Notes: generated by a model not told the origin, from the letters alone. 64,000 nt of DNA from Parcubacteria group bacterium (GCA_016181845.1 JACOYO010000003.1:16185-80184), one strand, 5' to 3'. Counted from the stretch's first letter, positions 3,529 through 46,037 are shown. Translations and numbers: made by a program.

Positions 3529-4506
3529 TTAAGAAGAATGAGTATCCAGGTTTCGTTCAAACTCATGTAATCGTTTCCAGATACTCCGCAATTCGGTAAT
3601 CGTTGTCCAATTATGGATAAACAGCGCAAGGCTTCCGTGTACTTGGGAAAAAGCATTTGAGACTTGAATCAAGACTCCAAGCGTAATAACACCGGTAAAC
3701 AATCCGGGTGCCATGATAAGATACGGCACAATGACCATGCATTGGTCATAGGTATTCAACCAAATGTCAAAATACCCATAATGCAAAAAGAGACGCTGAT
3801 AATTAAACCGAATTCCGGCAAATAATTCTTTCAGAATCGGCAGAGAAGCATGTTCAATTTTATTGTCCTCGCCATACACCAATTCTTTGCGAAACGCCGC
3901 CTCCACTTTTTGATTATTGTATTCAAGCCCCGGCAATTTAATACCGACAAACCAAGAAATAATCATTCCACCAACACTCACCAGAAGCGCCGCCCAGACG
4001 AGCGACCCGGGGATGTCCTTGATAATCGGCAAATCGACGCCATGTCCCAATTTCCACAAAACCGGAAGAAAAGCGATGAGGGTCATGAGCGCTCGTATCA
4101 CTTGCAGACCGAGCGATTCCACAATGCGCGCAAACCGATAGGTGTCTTCTTGGATACGCTGACTCGCTCCTTCAATCTCTGCCGCCACATTTCGCCAACG
4201 CGGAATATAATCAAACGTTATTGCCTCGCGCCAACGCAATGAATAGAGACGGGTAAAATAAGCAGTTATGGTTGCTAGAAGGACATAGGGCATTGCAATA
4301 GAAAGAAACGTTCTTATACTTTTCCAAAATTCAGACAAAGAATGTTCCGTCGCTTTTTGCAACATGTCATAAAATCCACCGTACCAATCATTTATCAGCA
4401 CAGACATGTGCACTTGCGCGTAGAGAGAACAAAATAAAAATACGCCGCCACCATATGCCCAAAACATCCATTTTTTGTTTAGGAAAAAGGCTCGTATCAT
4501 GAGCAT
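3529..4506 (-). CDS. polytopic membrane protein, SbmA/BacA-like (putative peptide/antibiotic uptake permease)
   Basis: 325 aa with multiple TM segments. The ...RIQEDTYRFARIVE... and ...QVSNAFSQVHGSLALFIHNWTTITELRSIWKRL... regions resemble the SbmA_BacA family. Called from memory, not searched. Confidence 0.4.
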   Translation of the reverse strand: MLMIRAFFLNKKWMFWAYGGGVFLFCSLYAQVHMSVLINDWYGGFYDMLQKATEHSLSEFWKSIRTFLSIAMPYVLLATITAYFTRLYSLRWREAITFDYIPRWRNVAAEIEGASQRIQEDTYRFARIVESLGLQVIRALMTLIAFLPVLWKLGHGVDLPIIKDIPGSLVWAALLVSVGGMIISWFVGIKLPGLEYNNQKVEAAFRKELVYGEDNKIEHASLPILKELFAGIRFNYQRLFLHYGYFDIWLNTYDQCMVIVPYLIMAPGLFTGVITLGVLIQVSNAFSQVHGSLALFIHNWTTITELRSIWKRLHEFERNLDTHSS

Positions 4507-7727: not shown

Positions 7728-7928
7728 ATGCAACAAGGCACTATCGCCAGACTGACAGACAAAGGCTACGGATTCATTTCGCGCGAAGGAGAAGCAAAAG
7801 ACCTTTTCTTTCACGCAAACGAACTCCGAGACGTCAGATACGACGAACTCAAAGAGGGAGACAGCGTTTCCTTTGAAATCGCCGAAAGCCACAAAGGCAT
7901 GCACGCAGTAAATGTGTCGCGCGTCTAA
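7728..7928 (+). CDS. cold-shock protein (CspA family), second copy
   Basis: 66 aa; GTIARLTDKGYGFISREGEAKDLFFHAN... Confidence 0.9.
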   Translation: MQQGTIARLTDKGYGFISREGEAKDLFFHANELRDVRYDELKEGDSVSFEIAESHKGMHAVNVSRV

Positions 7929-11278: not shown

Positions 11279-11938
11279 TCAAAATATTTTGTACTTATCT
11301 CCTTCCGCGATTTCGTCAATAAATCCTTTTTCAAGGGCTTCTTCCGCAGAGAAGATGGTGCCGTTTCCGTCATTTGCAAAGGAAAGTTTTTCTATTTCTG
11401 ACAGAGACAATTTGGAATGTTTTTCTAAAATCCTATTCCCGTATTGCTCGTCTTCAGCAAGATATTTTTCTATTTTTCTTATGCGGTTTTTCATACTCGG
11501 ATGATAAACAACCGTAATATCCTTTTCTGACGGGTGTATCAAGAAAAAACTATGCGGCGCCGCGACACGCTTCGTACACCCCTGAAGAACTATCAACGCC
11601 ATGGAAAGACATTTTCGTTCGACAATCCCGACCACTGGCGCTTTCAGGAAAATAGTCAAAAAATCATAAAACGACATTCCGGCATTCACACTTCCTCCGT
11701 CATTATTAATGATAAGAAAAATATCTTTGTCCGGAGAATCTAAGCTCAACTCTATTAAATCGCCCTTGATGCCGCCGGTTTTTTTCTCTGTAATTTCTCC
11801 CGTTAGTAAGACGATTCTTTTTTTCAATAAAACGTGCTTAAATTCCTCATCATCGTCTAGCGATTGAAAATCACCGTCAGAAGTTGCCTCATCCTCATCC
11901 AAATCACCTTCACATAATCTGCGATTTTTCTTTCGCAT
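11279..11938 (-). CDS. ClpP-family serine protease-like protein with an acidic N-terminal extension
   Basis: ...RIVLLTGEI..., ...LIINNDGGSVNAGMSFYDFL..., CLSMALIV (Ser) and FLIHPS (His) line up with the ClpP core. The N-terminus is unusually rich in D/E. Confidence 0.55.
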   Translation of the reverse strand: MRKKNRRLCEGDLDEDEATSDGDFQSLDDDEEFKHVLLKKRIVLLTGEITEKKTGGIKGDLIELSLDSPDKDIFLIINNDGGSVNAGMSFYDFLTIFLKAPVVGIVERKCLSMALIVLQGCTKRVAAPHSFFLIHPSEKDITVVYHPSMKNRIRKIEKYLAEDEQYGNRILEKHSKLSLSEIEKLSFANDGNGTIFSAEEALEKGFIDEIAEGDKYKIF

Positions 11939-12150: not shown

Positions 12151-13455
12151 ATGAGACCATGTTATCGGGTCAAAAGCGGAGTGCTTGATAACGGCCTTCG
12201 TTTTTATACCCAATACGATGATAGTTCTTCAAGAGAAATGGCAGTCCTTGCCGTAAACGTAGGCTCTATCCATGACCCAGACGATAAAAAGGGGCTTGCG
12301 CATACGTTAGAACATGTGATATGCGCAAAAACAAAAAACTTGAGCGCCAAAAGTATTGATGCTTTGTTTGCAAGAAGGATGGGTGGACCGGATGATAATT
12401 TCTTTATTACTACGAGCCGCACCTGCACAACATACGGTCCGGCAGATTACTTAAAAAAATCTCACAGCCAGGAGCTTTTTAAAATTTTTGCCGAGATGAT
12501 ACGAAATCCGATACTCTCAACCGACATCAAAAAAATCGAGCAAGCGGCAATCAATCAGGAACATTATCTGCGCGGGGAAGATATCGCGGAAATTTATATC
12601 GTGGATATCTTGTATGGCATACTCTTCTCCAAAAGCCCTGTCGGCTACCCTGTGGACGGTGTCATGCCTGACGTGCGAAATATTCGCATAAAAGACTTGA
12701 GAAACCACGCCGAAAGATTTTATAGGCCGTCAAACACATTCGTTGTATACTTGGGGCCAAAACACACCGAGGCCCGAAAAATAATAAACGATGCTCTTGG
12801 AGATTGGGGGTTGAAGCATGCGCCAGACACACCAGGGTTAGACGACTTGTTCATGCAACCATTCGCTCCGCTGGCGAAGTCAATGCTCACGACCATCAAG
12901 TGTCGCGGCATCCGTCAATGGCATGTTTGCATCGGGCTTCCGACTGAACCATATAGGAATGACGCCACGGCGCTTGATATTCTTGCGCGAATTCTTTCTG
13001 ACCGCCTCTACCATCGGCTTCGCACAGAAAATATACGCTGGAAACAAGGCGTGTATCGCGCTCCAGTATGGACTGAACACACATTTGCTCATGGGCTTTT
13101 CGCATCGCACTTTGCGACGCTAGATGGAGATTTCGTGCCGCGCATCATTGATACATTTCAAAAGGAATGTATGCGCTTGGGCGAAACACTCATCAGCCGC
13201 GAGGAGATTGAGACATGGGTCGGTTTTATGTACGATTACGAGTTTATGGATTGTTTTCAGAGGTCCCCGGGTAATTTGACCGACATGATTATTGACGCGG
13301 TGTCAAACGGCGACACCGACCTTGCGGAATTACACCAGCGCGGTGAAAAGCTTCTTAGTTTCCGCACGCAAGGAGGGAGAAAAATGCTCCGTGATATATC
13401 TCGGAAATATCTCGGCAATACCGCGACAGTAATCATGAAACCGGAGCCAGCATAA
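12151..13455 (+). CDS. M16-family (insulinase/pitrilysin-like) zinc peptidase
   Basis: The inverted zinc motif HxxEH appears as GLAHTLEHVIC. 434 aa. Confidence 0.8.
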   Translation: MRPCYRVKSGVLDNGLRFYTQYDDSSSREMAVLAVNVGSIHDPDDKKGLAHTLEHVICAKTKNLSAKSIDALFARRMGGPDDNFFITTSRTCTTYGPADYLKKSHSQELFKIFAEMIRNPILSTDIKKIEQAAINQEHYLRGEDIAEIYIVDILYGILFSKSPVGYPVDGVMPDVRNIRIKDLRNHAERFYRPSNTFVVYLGPKHTEARKIINDALGDWGLKHAPDTPGLDDLFMQPFAPLAKSMLTTIKCRGIRQWHVCIGLPTEPYRNDATALDILARILSDRLYHRLRTENIRWKQGVYRAPVWTEHTFAHGLFASHFATLDGDFVPRIIDTFQKECMRLGETLISREEIETWVGFMYDYEFMDCFQRSPGNLTDMIIDAVSNGDTDLAELHQRGEKLLSFRTQGGRKMLRDISRKYLGNTATVIMKPEPA

Positions 13456-16363: not shown

Positions 16364-16392
16364 GGGGAGCAGTTTCAACTGCTCCCTTTTTT
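16364..16392 (+). terminator. intrinsic terminator
   Basis: ggggagcagtt-tca-aactgctccctttttt. Confidence 0.6.
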
Positions 16393-16502
16393 GAATCTGT
16401 TGAAGTAAAACTTCAGCAGGCGGGGCTTGCTTTCTTTTTTTGTGAGGGCTATCTTACAATTAGATTCTTTTCTTTTATAAATCGTTGTTGTGCGGAGGGT
16501 TT

Positions 16503-16970
16503 ATGACAGATCTCGGGCACAGAAAAGAAATATTGGTTGCAAAAATCATCAGGAGCCTCAAGTGTGACCATACATGGATTCTAAACGCTGCGCAGTCAAA
16601 CCACACGGAAGACGCCGAGGGCAAGGATGTCATCGTTTACACAAAACAGGGAGAATTTTATATTCAAATAAAAAGCTCGTTAAAAAAAGCGGAAGATTTT
16701 GTACAAGATAAAAAATACCGCAAACGTTATAAAAAAATGTATGTGGTGACGCACCATGACAAAGAAAAAACCACCTGTCACACCATGCCGGCACCAAACG
16801 AAAACGCATATCCTTTTATTATCGTTTTGGTAATATTCCAAAAACAAAAGGGATATCAAAATCAAAATGTTGATATAATGAAGGCGATAGAAGATATTTC
16901 TCTCGTCTTAAAAAAAATAAAGATAACACTCAACATTATCAAGCAACATATTGACGAGTTGGAACAGTAA
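16503..16970 (+). CDS. small PD-(D/E)xK-fold nuclease-like protein (Mrr-cat/Hjc-like), very AT-rich
   Basis: Start at MTDLGHRK (GGAGGG upstream). ...EDAEGKDVIVYTKQGEFYIQIKSS... fits the D...(E/Q)xK restriction-endonuclease-like core. Confidence 0.4.
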   Translation: MTDLGHRKEILVAKIIRSLKCDHTWILNAAQSNHTEDAEGKDVIVYTKQGEFYIQIKSSLKKAEDFVQDKKYRKRYKKMYVVTHHDKEKTTCHTMPAPNENAYPFIIVLVIFQKQKGYQNQNVDIMKAIEDISLVLKKIKITLNIIKQHIDELEQ

Positions 16971-16993
16971 AATAAAGAGCGAGCCTATAAAAA

Positions 16994-17032
16994 ATCCGCC
17001 CGGGTATCTTGCCGATACGCCGGGCGGTTTAA
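16994..17032. terminator. bidirectional terminator shared by convergent genes
   Basis: ccgcccgggtatc...gatacgccgggcggttt. Confidence 0.55.
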
Positions 17033-17042
17033 TGCAAAAAAC

Positions 17043-18632
17043 TTAAAAATATTTTCTGCTTCTTCGTAACGATTTTCTTGGCAGACAATAACGGCCATTG
17101 ATGATAAAAATAATGGCCCTTTTTCCATTCGCATATTGTACAACGTGCGAGTTGGAATGACTGCTTGGACCGCCTGCCTCATACTCAAGCATGCCTGTGC
17201 TTTTGCCAGCGCTATAACAACCGTCAATGATTCCAGCAGTATGATTGTGCCCTTTGGTAACCTTTATACCAATGGTTGAAAGATTTTTGGTTGTCCCGCG
17301 TGAACCATTCGGTCCATTATCGCCATGGAGACTGTACTCAACACCGGATAATACGAAACTTTCATCCGGTTTCAAAAACCGCACACGTTTCGCGGCAATT
17401 TTTTTGGCATATAATATGAAGGGGTCATCATACTCAATCCCCCTTTCTGTCATCCGAATGCTTTCCTTAGCCGTTATCGACATTTTAAGATAAAAGTCTG
17501 CATTCACGGGGTCAGTTTTGAAATTGGCTTCTTTCATCCATCTCGTCAAAGCGCGGTCATGATTGCTTGAAACAACTACTGATTTGCAGTTGCGCGGTGT
17601 ATGTTGATTTACAAAACGAACAGCATCTTCAACTTCTGTGCGAACGCATTCCTTGCCGGCTTTCCATTTGCCATAGCCGGTAAGCCAATCGTCTTTGTGA
17701 TGATGATTGCGGGTGTGGAAATCTAGAAGGTCGTGCCAAATCAAATGTCTCGGATTCAAGAGGGTTAGCAAACTGTTTTTCGCGGTAAAAGTCGCTTTCA
17801 CTACATGGGATGAAATAAATCGCTGATGCACGTCGCCCATGCTTATAGAAAGCGCCGGTTTTGCGCGCTTTATTCCTTCAGGAGTAAATTCCATATCAAG
17901 GTCAATAAAAGCGCCTTTTCTATCGGCATTCAGCTCCCGCACATAAAACACATCGCCGTCAATCTCCACAATCAACGCGCCGAAACAATGATTAAACGCG
18001 GCGATGACGCCTTGTTTGGTATCCGTGTAATTCGGCAATGTACAAGCACCAGTGGTAAGCATTAGTTTTGGGTGTTTGTGTTGCGGAGTCGCGATTGAAG
18101 AGAGCGCCCGATTCCCGTGTCCGACAATACCGCTCATGTTTTTGGTGAGCGTATCCATACGCGACAGCGGCATTCCCGCGGCCCATTGTATTTTTACGTC
18201 TCCCAAAATCATAATGCGGTCATTCAACGCGATTCTCCCACGGCAAAGATACGGAAGCACTTCCTTGCACCACCACTCATGCTCAATATTTTTTTGAGTC
18301 CATTGGCTCGTTGGATTTTTGTACCTTCCCGGAATAACCACGAGCTCGGCATTGTAAAATTTGGTTGCTTGTTGCAAAGATTGCCAAAATTTTGGATGAA
18401 TCGGCGTCGCGTTTTGAGCCGCCGTGATAATATATATTTTTGCCTTTGGCAGATTACTGCGCATCAATACCGGCTTAGACGGCAATCGCGGAGTGGTCGT
18501 CCGATGCCCGCATCCGGTGCAAAGATAGCGTGGATTAGAGGTCTGATTTGTGGTATGGCCAGCTTTCACCAAATTGGTGTCGCCACATTTCGGACAAGAC
18601 TTAGACTCTGATTGGTTTGGTTTTTTAGCCAT
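17043..18632 (-). CDS. large hypothetical protein: N-terminal 4-Cys zinc ribbon (InsA/IS1595-type), then an unknown domain, then a calcineurin-like metallophosphoesterase-like C-terminal half
   Basis: CPKCGDTNLVKAGHTTNQTSNPRYLCTGCGH resembles the IS1/IS1595 transposase zinc ribbon. Downstream, the order of motifs SMGDVHQ, SNHD and KGHNHT resembles phosphoesterase motifs I, III and V. No DDE domain was recognised. Confidence 0.4.
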   Translation of the reverse strand: MAKKPNQSESKSCPKCGDTNLVKAGHTTNQTSNPRYLCTGCGHRTTTPRLPSKPVLMRSNLPKAKIYIITAAQNATPIHPKFWQSLQQATKFYNAELVVIPGRYKNPTSQWTQKNIEHEWWCKEVLPYLCRGRIALNDRIMILGDVKIQWAAGMPLSRMDTLTKNMSGIVGHGNRALSSIATPQHKHPKLMLTTGACTLPNYTDTKQGVIAAFNHCFGALIVEIDGDVFYVRELNADRKGAFIDLDMEFTPEGIKRAKPALSISMGDVHQRFISSHVVKATFTAKNSLLTLLNPRHLIWHDLLDFHTRNHHHKDDWLTGYGKWKAGKECVRTEVEDAVRFVNQHTPRNCKSVVVSSNHDRALTRWMKEANFKTDPVNADFYLKMSITAKESIRMTERGIEYDDPFILYAKKIAAKRVRFLKPDESFVLSGVEYSLHGDNGPNGSRGTTKNLSTIGIKVTKGHNHTAGIIDGCYSAGKSTGMLEYEAGGPSSHSNSHVVQYANGKRAIIFIINGRYCLPRKSLRRSRKYF

Positions 18633-18775
18633 CGTCTCCTCCTTTTTCTAAGTTTTCAAAGAAAATCTACTGTCTGAAGCGTAACAAAAAAGCGCCTCTT
18701 TGGATGCGTGACGCGCTGTGGATAAGTGGCCGTGCAACAATTTTTTCTTTCTTGCAAGAAGAAAAATTGCCGTTT

Positions 18776-44105: not shown

Positions 44106-46037
44106 TTAATGCGCAATCAGCTGGTTGGCAATCATGAATATATTGCCGAGCAATGACGCGCTTTTGGCATTTGATTGCGGCGCTTCGGATGGAGGTGGCG
44201 GAGCAATACTGCCGTCTAAAGGAGCGGTAAATCCTGTTGGTTCCGTTTGTGGCGGAGGTGGCGCTATCTGTTGCTGTTCTTGCTGGAGCATCATTCCGCT
44301 ATCTATTGGTTGTATGATTGGCATTATTGAAGTGCGCTCTCCTTCCTGAAAACCTTGTTCTGTTTGCGGCATTTGCGGTATAAATTTTTCCCCTTCTATT
44401 CTCATCATATTGTCGTCTCCCATCATCGGTCTTTCAAAAGATTGCCGGTCGTCAAATTTCTGCTCGCCTTCAAAAATCCGCTGTTGTACATCGCGCTGAA
44501 ATTCTTCAGGATTCTTAAAATGTTCCAATGACGGCATCCCTTCGCGCACGCATCGCTCAATCGTCCCGCCGATGTCAGACGGCGCGCGACTGCTATCAAG
44601 CGCCCCTTTCACGCAATCACGCGCGGATTCCGGCACAGCATTGAGATTAAAATGTTCTTGAAATCCTTTTTTGATTTCGCGCTCGCGAATATTCCTCTCA
44701 TCATCTTTTCCTTTCATCATTCCATTCTCTCCATGCTCAAAGCCGCCATTAAAATCTTCCAGCATATTGCCTTGCATGTCTCTGAAATCGCCTCGCGGTT
44801 GCTCGCCGCTGAATTGTTCAAAACATCCGCGTATTTCTGACTCCGCTTTTTGGCGTTCTTCTTGAGACATCTTGCCCATATTTTGCAATCCTTCTTTGCC
44901 GATGCGTTCAGTAACGCAAGATTCCACCTCCGGAGGCATGTTTCCCATAAACCCGCCTTCACCATTTTCAGGTCCTCCCATTCCGCCGAATTGTTCAAAA
45001 CATTTTTGCGCGGTGTCGCCAATATTTTTTCCTGGCATCTTGGTGCCGGCGCGAATGCCTTCAATCACGTCAGACCCGAGAGCGTCTTTTAAGCATTGCG
45101 ACACTGGAGCAGGCGCTTCATCAAGCATTTTTCTAAATTCTCCGACATGGCGGTTAATATTTTCAAGCTCATCTGGAGGTATCAGCCCATGCTCTTGCGC
45201 AAACGCAAAACAGGCATCCTGATGCGCGGGGTCTTCGCAATATGTTTGACATTCTTCGCGCTTACAGCCACCGGGGCCTTTGCCACCCGTTTTCCTAGCC
45301 ATTTCAGCGTCTTTTGCAGAAACAAATCCCGCTTTTTCACCAAAAGCAAGACATTCTTCAAAATGAGAGTCGTCGTTGCAGTATGCTTCACATTCTTTTT
45401 TGCCTTTGCATCCGCCCGGCATTTGTCCGCTCTTCATAAGGGGGGCGATACGCCTTGCTTCCGCAAGTTCTTCGGGAGGAATAAATCCGGCTTTTTCAGC
45501 AAACGCCAAACACTCATCTATGTGCGCGCCGTCTTCACAATATGCCTGACATTCTTTTTTCCCCTTACAACCCCCGGGCGGCACCGCGCCGTCTTTCAGC
45601 GCTTTTGCCACTTGTTTTGCTTCTTTTAATTCATCGGGCGGAATAAGACCGTGTTTTTCTCCAAACGCGACGCACTCTTCAATATGCGCCACATCTTCGC
45701 AATACGTATCGCAAGCCCCCTTTGAAGCACAGCCGCCAGGCCCGCTTGTTTCTCCAAGTTGCGCGAATTTCTTTGCCTCCCGTAATTCATCTGGCGGAAT
45801 TAAATTATATTTTTCTGCAAAAGAAAGACATGCATTGACATGCGACAAATCGTCACAATACGCACGGCACGCTTTTTCGTCCTTACAATCCCCCAATTCT
45901 GAAACCGGAAATACGATGTCTTGTGCCGTAAGCGCCTGCGCGGAAGAAACGCCAACTGCTCCGATGCCGACAATAACCGCTATAAAAAAAATCGCGTATC
46001 TCGTAAAAAGAAAAATATTTTTGTGCCGCATAAACAA
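44106..46037 (-). CDS. secreted protein with five tandem 4-Cys modules (about 49 aa each) and a long acidic, Gly/Met/Gln-rich, Pro-terminated tail
   Basis: Signal peptide ...GAVGVSSAQA. The repeat consensus is approximately GGCKGKKEC.AYCEDxxHI.EC.AFAEK.G.IPPDEL.EA, with C-x5-6-C-x3-C-x8-C spacing. Confidence 0.55.
   Translation of the reverse strand: MFMRHKNIFLFTRYAIFFIAVIVGIGAVGVSSAQALTAQDIVFPVSELGDCKDEKACRAYCDDLSHVNACLSFAEKYNLIPPDELREAKKFAQLGETSGPGGCASKGACDTYCEDVAHIEECVAFGEKHGLIPPDELKEAKQVAKALKDGAVPPGGCKGKKECQAYCEDGAHIDECLAFAEKAGFIPPEELAEARRIAPLMKSGQMPGGCKGKKECEAYCNDDSHFEECLAFGEKAGFVSAKDAEMARKTGGKGPGGCKREECQTYCEDPAHQDACFAFAQEHGLIPPDELENINRHVGEFRKMLDEAPAPVSQCLKDALGSDVIEGIRAGTKMPGKNIGDTAQKCFEQFGGMGGPENGEGGFMGNMPPEVESCVTERIGKEGLQNMGKMSQEERQKAESEIRGCFEQFSGEQPRGDFRDMQGNMLEDFNGGFEHGENGMMKGKDDERNIREREIKKGFQEHFNLNAVPESARDCVKGALDSSRAPSDIGGTIERCVREGMPSLEHFKNPEEFQRDVQQRIFEGEQKFDDRQSFERPMMGDDNMMRIEGEKFIPQMPQTEQGFQEGERTSIMPIIQPIDSGMMLQQEQQQIAPPPPQTEPTGFTAPLDGSIAPPPPSEAPQSNAKSASLLGNIFMIANQLIAH

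Follow-up and report, generated by a model that had tools for sequence, protein, structure and literature searches.

Among the phage proteins whose function has resisted explanation, A1 of bacteriophage T5 is one of the oldest: it erases the chromosome of its host, and it has neither a Pfam family nor a solved structure. A1 is a predicted metallophosphatase that is essential to the phage and toxic in E. coli; in vivo it is both required and sufficient for the host chromosome to be degraded, it has been described as predominantly a gene of the Demerecviridae, and how T5 DNA escapes it is an open question for T5 (bioRxiv 10.64898/2026.04.02.716235). Here we describe a relative of A1 encoded in a bacterial chromosome. 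It lies in a stretch of 64,000 nucleotides (hereafter the window; GCA_016181845.1 JACOYO010000003.1:16185-80184) that is part of a 114-kb contig in the metagenome-assembled genome (MAG) of a Parcubacteria group bacterium; all positions are window coordinates. The gene occupies 17043..18632 on the minus strand, encodes 529 amino acids (identical to P0001), and converges, across 72 nt, with a small open reading frame (ORF) on the plus strand at 16485/16503..16970, the two numbers denoting alternative starts. A sequence-only reading of this DNA had proposed such a convergent pair at 16485-18632, and both ORFs were found as it described them.

The large protein is a member of the T5 A1 family

Over residues 58-515 the large protein matches the PHROGs profile phrog_1745 ('DNA transfer protein') with an E-value of 3.6e-144 and 482 bits, covering profile positions 80-539 of 542. 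A tblastn search matched 1132 phage records, most of which bear the annotation 'A1 protein' or 'DNA transfer protein A1'; 1106 of the 1132 span at least 80% of the query. The A1 proteins of Tequintavirus (T5-like) phages are 31-33% identical (E about 1e-62), the 'DNA transfer protein A1' of SP15 33% (86% coverage, E 1e-62); other matches come from Vibrio, Flavobacterium, Caulobacter and Rhizobium phages and, at 39% identity, from a Xanthomonas jumbo phage. The protein is a member of the phage T5 A1 family, preceded by a four-cysteine zinc ribbon. From the profile and the phage matches it follows that what the sequence-only reading had called an unknown middle domain plus a phosphoesterase, in an architecture that it did not recognise, is the body of T5 A1: the profile runs unbroken over residues 58-515, and the whole is a zinc ribbon joined to the body of a known family. 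Three parts can be told apart, all on the minus strand: the zinc ribbon at residues 13-46 (18495..18596; CPKCG...CTGCG, with C13, C16, C38 and C41); the A1-family N-terminal domain at residues 58-260 (17853..18461), within the phrog_1745 match; and the metallophosphoesterase catalytic domain at residues 261-515 (17088..17852), with motifs I-V.

T5 A1 itself, a pre-early protein of phrog_1745 and a hallmark of the Demerecviridae, is homologous to the window protein over residues 58-515 and has the same two-domain body. The two agree in every metallophosphoesterase motif and in many residues of the N-domain, among them T70, Q73, N74, T194, G195, N201, Y202, H215 and E223, which are unchanged from the window protein to T5-type A1. 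They differ at the N-terminus, where T5-type A1 carries about 100 residues without cysteine in place of the ribbon, and in their setting: T5 A1 is phage-borne and pre-early, beside A2 and dmp, whereas the window gene is chromosomal, has no A2 or dmp neighbours and no first-step-transfer context, and its product, unlike T5 A1, presumably leaves the cell encoding it alive. The A2/dmp neighbourhood is a trait of the T5 lifestyle, not of the protein family. The full architecture, ribbon included, occurs at 47-56% identity in uncultivated phages (IMG/VR contigs L047-L051 and the 93-kb contig L009), in which the gene adjoins terminase, capsid and primase genes, whereas the window gene stands alone among housekeeping genes.

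The ribbon, which the sequence-only reading had likened to those of IS1 and IS1595, falls just short of the threshold of the NCBIfam model NF050000 IS1_IS1595_Zn (27.6 bits, cutoff 28) and scores 23.6 bits on NF048018; in Pfam the large protein has weak zinc-ribbon matches only. Most Patescibacteria copies carry it, as do phages L047 and P0112; P0031, P0053, P0073 and P0083 have replaced or lost it, and the A1 proteins of T5-like phages, Xoo-sp13 and RHEph15 are without it. Some family members that seem to have no ribbon may be start-codon artefacts. Since it has been lost several times, the ribbon is dispensable; it probably adds nucleic-acid or protein targeting. One copy, P0012 (L131:873-2429), has been called with a late start at 473 amino acids, and tblastn puts a zinc-ribbon N-terminus upstream of it in the same frame.

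Public records give the gene another identity: 'IS1 family transposase' is the NCBI name of P0001, P0005, P0035 and P0070, in keeping with the likeness of the ribbon to the IS1/IS1595 zinc domain. There is next to no chance that this name is right. The IS1 transposase model itself (NF033558 transpos_IS1) reaches 15 bits against a cutoff of 100 and touches residues 13-44 only, that is, the zinc ribbon, and the large protein has no DDE transposase domain, as the sequence-only reading had already remarked. Residues 58-515 belong to the A1 family, and the gene is single-copy and syntenic. Around the gene pair neither terminal inverted repeats nor target-site duplications were found, the only repeats being short and imperfect (79-87% complementarity) and not bracketing the pair. 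The missing DDE domain, the A1 body and the lack of terminal repeats rule the label out; it is an artefact of the N-terminal zinc ribbon, and such wrong names inflate transposase counts in genomes of the Candidate Phyla Radiation (CPR).

In the catalytic domain the motifs follow one another as GDVH (266-269), HDLLD (300-304), SNHD (356-359), HG (436-437) and GHNH (461-464), which correspond to motifs I-V: GD267xH269, HD301xxD304, N357-H358, H436 and GH462xH464. This is the canonical sequence of motifs of the calcineurin-like metallophosphoesterase superfamily (DxH, GDxxD-like, GNH[DE], H, GHxH). The series GDVH, SNHD, GHNH, noted in that order from the sequence alone, is present and unchanged in 20 homologues (44-75% identity), where G266-D267-x-H269, D301, D304, N357-H358, H436-G437 and H462-x-H464 are all invariant, as well as in T5-type A1. 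When the window protein is aligned with the A1 proteins of T5-like phages, Xoo-sp13, RHEph15, L047 and P0112, the residues G266, D267, H269, H300, D301, D304, N309-H311, S356-H358, H436, G437, H462 and H464 do not vary.

An AlphaFold2 model of the 529-residue protein (mean predicted local distance difference test, pLDDT, 73.7; predicted template modelling score, pTM, 0.75) is confident over residues 220-515, with values of 80-95 in the catalytic domain, and poor over residues 149-216. Searched against the PDB with Foldseek, the model finds first the DP1 subunit of polymerase D (PolD; 9f29_A, 8ppt_A and 6hms_A; probability 1.0, E about 1e-4, about 390 columns), and next Vps29, the B-subunits of Pol delta and Pol zeta, and Mre11; PP5 is matched too. 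This agrees with the phosphoesterase-like character first read from the motifs. DP1, the small subunit of archaeal polymerase D and an Mre11-like 3'-5' proofreading exonuclease, consists of an oligonucleotide-binding (OB) and a phosphodiesterase domain; together with the B-subunits of Pol delta and zeta it provides the best structural matches to the predicted model. As the roughly 390 aligned columns exceed the 255 residues of the catalytic domain, part of the N-terminal domain seems to be included in the DP1 match, judging by the number of columns and not by a residue-level alignment. The resemblance is one of fold only: identity to DP1 is 10-12%, there is no detectable sequence similarity, the TM-score is about 0.3, a DP2 partner is missing, and the gene is a bacterial or phage gene. 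With Mre11 and SbcD the window protein shares the calcineurin-type metallophosphoesterase fold and the order of motifs, and its motif V resembles the GHIH of SbcD; the matches are weak (Foldseek E 0.08-0.14; for E. coli SbcD a local hhalign alignment of motif V to GHIH, E 7e-4, probability 26%), and no similarity to the capping domain is seen. Such low TM-scores speak for a fold class only, not for close kinship. On the strength of motif order, motif invariance and predicted fold, and not of the Pfam Metallophos models, a beta-sandwich metallophosphoesterase fold in the C-terminal half of the A1 body is supported. An SbcCD-like logic, suggested earlier for the gene pair, was dropped, since no Rad50/SbcC-type ATPase is present: the only ABC-type ATPase nearby is SufC, and the genes adjoining the large one are the small ORF and a SufT-like gene.

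Distribution, descent and genomic setting

Relatives of the window protein are numerous. A deep protein search gave 588, of which the best 120 are 45-77% identical and nearly all full length; those named among these 120 belong to Parcubacteria, Lloydbacteria, Kaiserbacteria, Paceibacterota and Minisyncoccota, on contigs of up to 784 kb. An exhaustive search of cluster representatives returned 2071 clusters at 50% identity (1002 at E below 1e-30), and all Patescibacteria copies fall into a single one. In a scan of 185,579 GTDB species, limited by its peptide patterns, 37 loci were recovered: those at 58-76% identity are all Patescibacteria, and those at 34-47% come from MAGs scattered over Proteobacteria, Acidobacteria, Flavobacteria and other groups, with one of these MAGs, L026, carrying tail sheath and endolysin genes. 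IMG/VR holds 302 viral contigs with relatives, many with a zinc ribbon, the best being L047-L051 at 54% identity; L047 carries genes for terminase, portal, major head protein, scaffold and primase-helicase, and P0112 (47%) lies on a phage-like 93-kb contig. In the Patescibacteria genomes the A1-like gene is solitary among housekeeping genes. The A1 family is known, though poorly understood, and uncultivated phages commonly carry its zinc-ribbon form; the apparent novelty is that Patescibacteria have a clade of copies that are chromosomal and under constraint. No paper joining A1 or 'DNA transfer protein' with Patescibacteria came up in the literature searched, which is not proof of novelty.

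Neighbour joining of 114 unique sequences groups the 22 chromosomal copies from Patescibacteria in one clade (bootstrap 76/100), and the sister of this clade is the group of phages L047-L051 (98/100). A derivation from mobile elements, which the sequence-only reading had put forward as one option, is borne out by the membership in the T5 A1 family and by this sister relation to genuine phage contigs. Within the clade the tree follows two synteny groups, each with the gene downstream of the Suf cluster. The simplest history we can infer is a single capture followed by mainly vertical descent: an ancestor of the Parcubacteria lineage would have taken up a phage zinc-ribbon A1 gene once, and its descendants would for the most part have inherited it.

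The window is core Parcubacteria chromosome. On one flank of the two ORFs are genes for cytochrome c, uracil-DNA glycosylase, a class-II tRNA-synthetase-like protein, a Clp-like protease, an M16 peptidase, a SIMPL protein and an aldehyde dehydrogenase; on the other are SufT-like, SufC, SufU and SufB, then RpoD and DnaG (95% and 75% identity to annotated genes of L130), with RpoC, RpoB, UvrA, UvrB, BipA and GdhA further along. At the locus itself we found no phage module, integrase, nearby tRNA gene or terminal repeats. The A1-like gene is also compositionally at home: its G+C content (GC, 0.455) and that at third codon positions (GC3, 0.457) equal the mean of the 45 window genes. Compared with its orthologues in L010, L007 and L011 it has 0.14-0.16 nonsynonymous (pN) and 0.65-0.86 synonymous (pS) differences per site; the ratio of substitution rates, dN/dS, is about 0.05-0.11 (dS being near saturation), in the range of SufC, the aldehyde dehydrogenase (Aldedh) and SIMPL, and its dN of about 0.16 is that of Aldedh and SIMPL. 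For the small ORF dN/dS is 0.12-0.16, again with dS near saturation. As pN is far below pS, both ORFs are real and under purifying selection, and the neighbour-like composition and dN/dS of the A1-like gene mark it as a long-resident, constrained host gene. A branch of a very large family, with about 2000 clusters at 50% identity, has evidently been chromosomal in Parcubacteria for long, at a housekeeping level of constraint.

The family being overwhelmingly phage-borne, as those clusters, the 302 IMG/VR contigs and the 1132 phage records attest, the gene might be thought a cryptic prophage remnant or a selfish gene of no benefit to the cell. We hold this to be very improbable. Strong purifying selection, catalytic residues that are intact across the clade and a fully ameliorated composition largely refute it; in addition no phage genes or repeats lie adjacent, and the gene is kept in very small, streamlined genomes at changing positions.

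Its position suggests a further possibility, namely that the A1-like gene is an accessory of the operon for Suf iron-sulfur assembly, its immediate upstream neighbour on that strand: the two share an orientation, the gene begins 143 nt after the SufT-like gene, and in two synteny groups it lies at most 5.4 kb downstream of the Suf cluster. This connection is more improbable still. In the genomes of the second synteny group unrelated genes on both strands separate the A1-like gene from the Suf cluster, and in L001, L005 and L008 it is nowhere near Suf genes. It has a strong Shine-Dalgarno sequence of its own, AAGGAGG (18638..18644, minus strand; read from the sequence), which sits in the 143-nt gap, 5 nt upstream of the ATG, and its homologues are phage nucleases. 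The distance from Suf genes in those three genomes, the separate Shine-Dalgarno sequence and the phage homologues led us to reject the idea.

A probable role in DNA turnover

The core-chromosome location, the genome-average GC, the neighbour-like dN/dS and the phage sister clade argue for a domesticated phage nuclease, and we consider it reasonably probable that the 529-residue gene is a phage T5 A1-family member that has become fixed in the chromosome ('domesticated') and now serves as a deoxyribonuclease (DNase) in DNA turnover. Its product would be a cytoplasmic, divalent-metal-dependent DNase, the location being suggested by an N-terminus that is a zinc ribbon and not a signal peptide. It may break down DNA other than the cell's own intact chromosome, whether imported, damaged or invading, and so feed nucleotide salvage in an organism unable to make nucleotides. 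Patescibacteria have no nucleotide synthesis and have been proposed to depend on DNA import and on DNA-degrading enzymes (PMC11665869). In phages, A1 is found near nucleotide-metabolism genes, such as the dmp 5'-deoxynucleotidase of the T5-like SP15 (L127, 4732-5466) and a deoxynucleoside monophosphate (dNMP) kinase in L088 (11208-11765), and a role of A1 in supplying or removing nucleotides fits these neighbours. For both reasons, the auxotrophy and the phage neighbourhood, salvage of nucleotides from imported or foreign DNA would be the most economical hypothesis, one reached by inference throughout. As for the cellular role in general, DNA turnover is favoured over dedicated defence, because the rate and synteny of the gene resemble those of housekeeping genes and because no defence-system signature accompanies it. 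The A1-like protein is thereby a candidate enzyme for how Patescibacteria obtain nucleotides, and a cellular homologue that does not kill its cell offers a handle on A1 biochemistry and on the way in which self DNA is spared.

Several points weigh against this picture. No biochemical activity has been demonstrated for the A1 family, none in vitro for T5 A1, and the authors of the T5 work still allow that A1 is an activator of a host nuclease (bioRxiv 10.64898/2026.04.02.716235). The fold comes from an AlphaFold2 model of moderate confidence (pLDDT 73.7), in which residues 149-216 are disordered and TM-scores are about 0.3; the Pfam Metallophos models, searched at E up to 1, do not match the large protein, nor does any solved structure in sequence and profile searches of the PDB. 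The gene is not beside salvage or competence genes, and the sparing of the cell's own chromosome is unexplained, as is that of T5 DNA. Within Patescibacteria it is sporadic, occurring in about 20 of the 185,579 GTDB species by the pattern-limited scan. One genome, L011 (Patescibacteria UBA6023), combines the synteny of the second group with an A1 gene of the first-group type (76% identity), a conflict between tree and synteny that suggests some horizontal exchange or replacement within the lineage. Finally, an empty-site comparison by way of the flanking aldehyde dehydrogenase yielded, among metagenome contigs, only relatives of at most 54% identity and no shared synteny. SufC of L011 is about 49% identical, and its Suf proteins are those of the other group. 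What the analysis provides is a re-identification, a correction of the annotation, a credible account of domestication and a testable hypothesis on partners; no new mechanism is demonstrated.

The small ORF and the Clp-fold protease

The small ORF (plus strand) encodes 155 amino acids from the ATG at 16503, which has GGAGG ahead of it and from which the public record P0121 (155 amino acids) also begins, or 161 from a TTG at 16485. Upstream of it, after the stop codon of the aldehyde dehydrogenase, a terminator scan found two terminator-like hairpins on the plus strand, at 16364..16387 (10 pairs and a T-run) and at 16415..16431, which isolate the small ORF as a transcription unit of its own. 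The 72-nt convergent spacer holds another hairpin (16996..17027), GC-rich, with 13 bp, one bulge and a 5-nt loop, a predicted RNA folding energy of -24.3 kcal/mol (z = -2.63 against shuffles), and an A-run and a T-run on its sides; it is probably a bidirectional terminator. The spacer hairpin, the upstream hairpins and the individual Shine-Dalgarno sequence of each gene indicate two separate transcription units. In assembly GCA_016214585.1 two Lloydbacteria contigs, L006 (end at 7892) and L007 (end at 4113), stop no more than 70-150 nt from the convergent spacer that divides the small ORF from the A1-like gene, so that the assembly is broken precisely where the hairpin lies.

The small ORF had been described as compositionally foreign and as a mini-nuclease of the restriction-endonuclease fold. 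Its GC of 0.363 is indeed the lowest of the 45 genes (z = -2.9). At third codon positions, however, it is unremarkable (GC3 0.417, z = -0.9), and the AT-richness comes from an abundance of Lys, Ile and Asn; with the large gene at the genome average, the notion of foreign composition does not hold for the pair. The nuclease assignment is suggested by a D...QxK motif and a fitting predicted topology, and no search gave a significant match. The family consists of nine proteins and the copy in L010, at 46-60% identity, none of them annotated, and a deep profile search for distant relatives gave only the nine close members. Invariant in it are E9, D42, Q55 and K57 (D42...Q55xK57). The AlphaFold2 model (pLDDT 66.7) has the order alpha-beta-beta-beta-alpha-beta, with a helix at 4-22 and strands at 42-47 and 50-57, and places E9 on helix 1, D42 on strand 2 and Q55-x-K57 on strand 3. 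A Q-x-K variant of the PD-(D/E)xK motif belongs to the Mrr proteins, and the arrangement of D42...Q55-x-K57 on predicted strands 2 and 3 behind the helix with E9 is like that of the Mrr PD-(D/E)xK domain (GIDGV...VQAK in EcoKMrr); hhalign lays the motif segment onto EcoKMrr residues 195-222 with an E-value of 0.61 and a probability of 0.09. Unlike Mrr, the small ORF has no N-terminal DNA-recognition domain, and its family has only about ten members in one Parcubacteria lineage. The best Foldseek match is the PD-(D/E)xK nuclease CinB, at a non-significant E of 0.03; neither Foldseek against the PDB or BFVD nor a PDB profile search gave a significant match, and Pfam has none for five family members and none for the window copy. 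That the small ORF encodes an Mrr-like PD-(D/E)xK nuclease is a reasonable guess from motif and model. P0122, P0124, P0274-P0278 and the L010 copy have a further N-terminal tail of some 45 residues, rich in Lys and Arg (MKRRGKIKRRQKRERR...), which is missing from the window copy (16503-16970) and P0123.

Co-occurrence of the two genes in other genomes was observed within limits. The small ORF is convergent to the A1-like gene in all seven contiguous loci in which it occurs (the window, L010, L130, L131, L132, L214 and L215), and in an eighth genome, that of assembly GCA_016214585.1, the two sit at the ends of two contigs. All eight share one collinear block (Aldedh, small ORF, A1-like, SufT-like, SufC), with A1 proteins 74-77% identical, so that the co-occurrence is accounted for by common descent; of the 26 Patescibacteria A1-like loci, the remaining 18 have no small ORF. 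A 199-residue ORF that is convergent after the A1-like gene in L003 and L014 is not homologous to it. The best explanation is that the small ORF is a separate, lineage-specific and independently transcribed gene and not a required partner of the A1-like gene; a functional link between the two is possible but unsupported.

The sequence-only reading had gone further and considered a defence system. In such a two-nuclease anti-phage or superinfection-exclusion module, linear DNA entering the cell would be destroyed by the A1-like DNase, with the small Mrr-like nuclease serving as sensor, co-effector or immunity factor. The nuclease-type motifs of both proteins, the constant company that the small ORF keeps in the seven contiguous loci and the wholesale degradation of DNA by T5 A1 are in line with it, and captured phage genes are often turned against phages. 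We nevertheless think the proposal unlikely. PADLOC found no defence system for either protein: in PADLOC-DB v2 the only match is that of the zinc ribbon to Cas12f (E 0.022), and the small ORF is without any. Housekeeping genes, not a defence island, surround the pair; substitution rate and stability of synteny are those of the neighbouring housekeeping genes, unlike those of typical defence genes; most A1-like loci have no small ORF; the pair forms separate transcription units; and the nuclease fold of the small ORF is unproven.

A more recurrent companion of the A1-like gene was found when ORFs within 6 kb of it were clustered in 24 Patescibacteria loci: the most frequent neighbour is a Clp-fold serine protease. 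A hidden Markov model (HMM) census places it within 6 kb in 11 of the 26 Patescibacteria loci, five of these with no more than 1 kb between, and the arrangements number at least four; in four genomes of the second synteny group it follows the A1-like gene immediately, in convergent orientation. The window copy, a candidate associate at 11279..11938 on the minus strand, is 5.1 kb and four genes from the A1-like gene. It scores 88 bits on PF00574 and 66 bits on TIGR00493 clpP, where the cutoff is 308.6; the family as a whole spans 21-66 bits on the latter, far below genuine ClpP, and several members score best on a phage model, 'head maturation protease, ClpP-related', also below its cutoff. The Ser-His-Asp triad is invariant. 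Among phage or other loci the census found a Clp-like gene near A1 in 3 of 101. In these phage contigs (L075:7024-7716, L088:10559-11197 and L121:11569-12255) it overlaps the A1 stop codon and lies among primase and helicase genes, not capsid genes; in L088 the dNMP kinase is adjacent.

The proximity may be inherited synteny or a real nuclease-protease module. Under the latter the A1-like protein would work with the non-canonical Clp-fold protease, and not with the small ORF, the protease activating or removing an otherwise toxic nuclease and both genes having come together from phages. The variety of arrangements, the overlaps with the A1 stop codon, which occur in DNA-metabolism modules at a distance from capsid genes, and an invariant triad in proteins that score so far below genuine ClpP are all in its favour. 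Yet the pairing is confined to those three of 101 phage or other loci and is missing from the sister phages L047-L051 (in L047 the gene after A1 is not Clp-like); the window protease stands well apart from the A1-like gene; and in Patescibacteria the proximity may reflect inherited synteny with a Clp protease that is the cell's own. We therefore give such a module about as little credence as the two-nuclease defence.

The turnover role preferred above can be carried one step further, to a conjecture that we find somewhat less doubtful than either module but still far from probable: ultra-small, nucleotide-auxotrophic Patescibacteria would have turned the T5-type A1 'host-chromosome shredder' into a housekeeping DNase, made safe for the cell by the co-inherited, non-canonical Clp-fold protease, the zinc ribbon or both, which would convert imported or host-derived DNA into nucleotides. 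If true, the A1 family would here have its first cellular role, and there would be a natural system in which to learn how A1 tells target from protected DNA, a question open for T5 too.

Some observations on neighbouring genes complete the description. A Clp-like gene is found 88-911 bp downstream of the A1-like gene in L011-L013 and L020, and also near it in L001, L022 and L023. The 199-residue ORF of L003 and L014 was compared with the Clp-like family as well, with an unconvincing probability of 20%. Elsewhere in the window, a 643-residue ORF at 44106-46037 (minus strand) has no Pfam match at E up to 1e-5. The window Clp-like gene is followed by the M16 peptidase gene (12151-13455, plus strand), which is absent from the syntenic block of L010, L130 and L132; these three have two tandem Clp-like paralogues before SIMPL, and the window only one. 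Outside the T5-like phages, in Rhizobium phage RHEph15 (L129) and Xanthomonas phage Xoo-sp13 (L128), A1 is not in a pre-early region and lies within a replication module (primase, DnaB helicase, A1, ligase, Pol I). In two of the phage contigs giant ORFs end at or overlap the start of the A1-like gene, L075:232-5448 (1738 amino acids) and L121:1449-9971 (2840 amino acids), the former matching a DarB-like antirestriction protein (phrog_10089).

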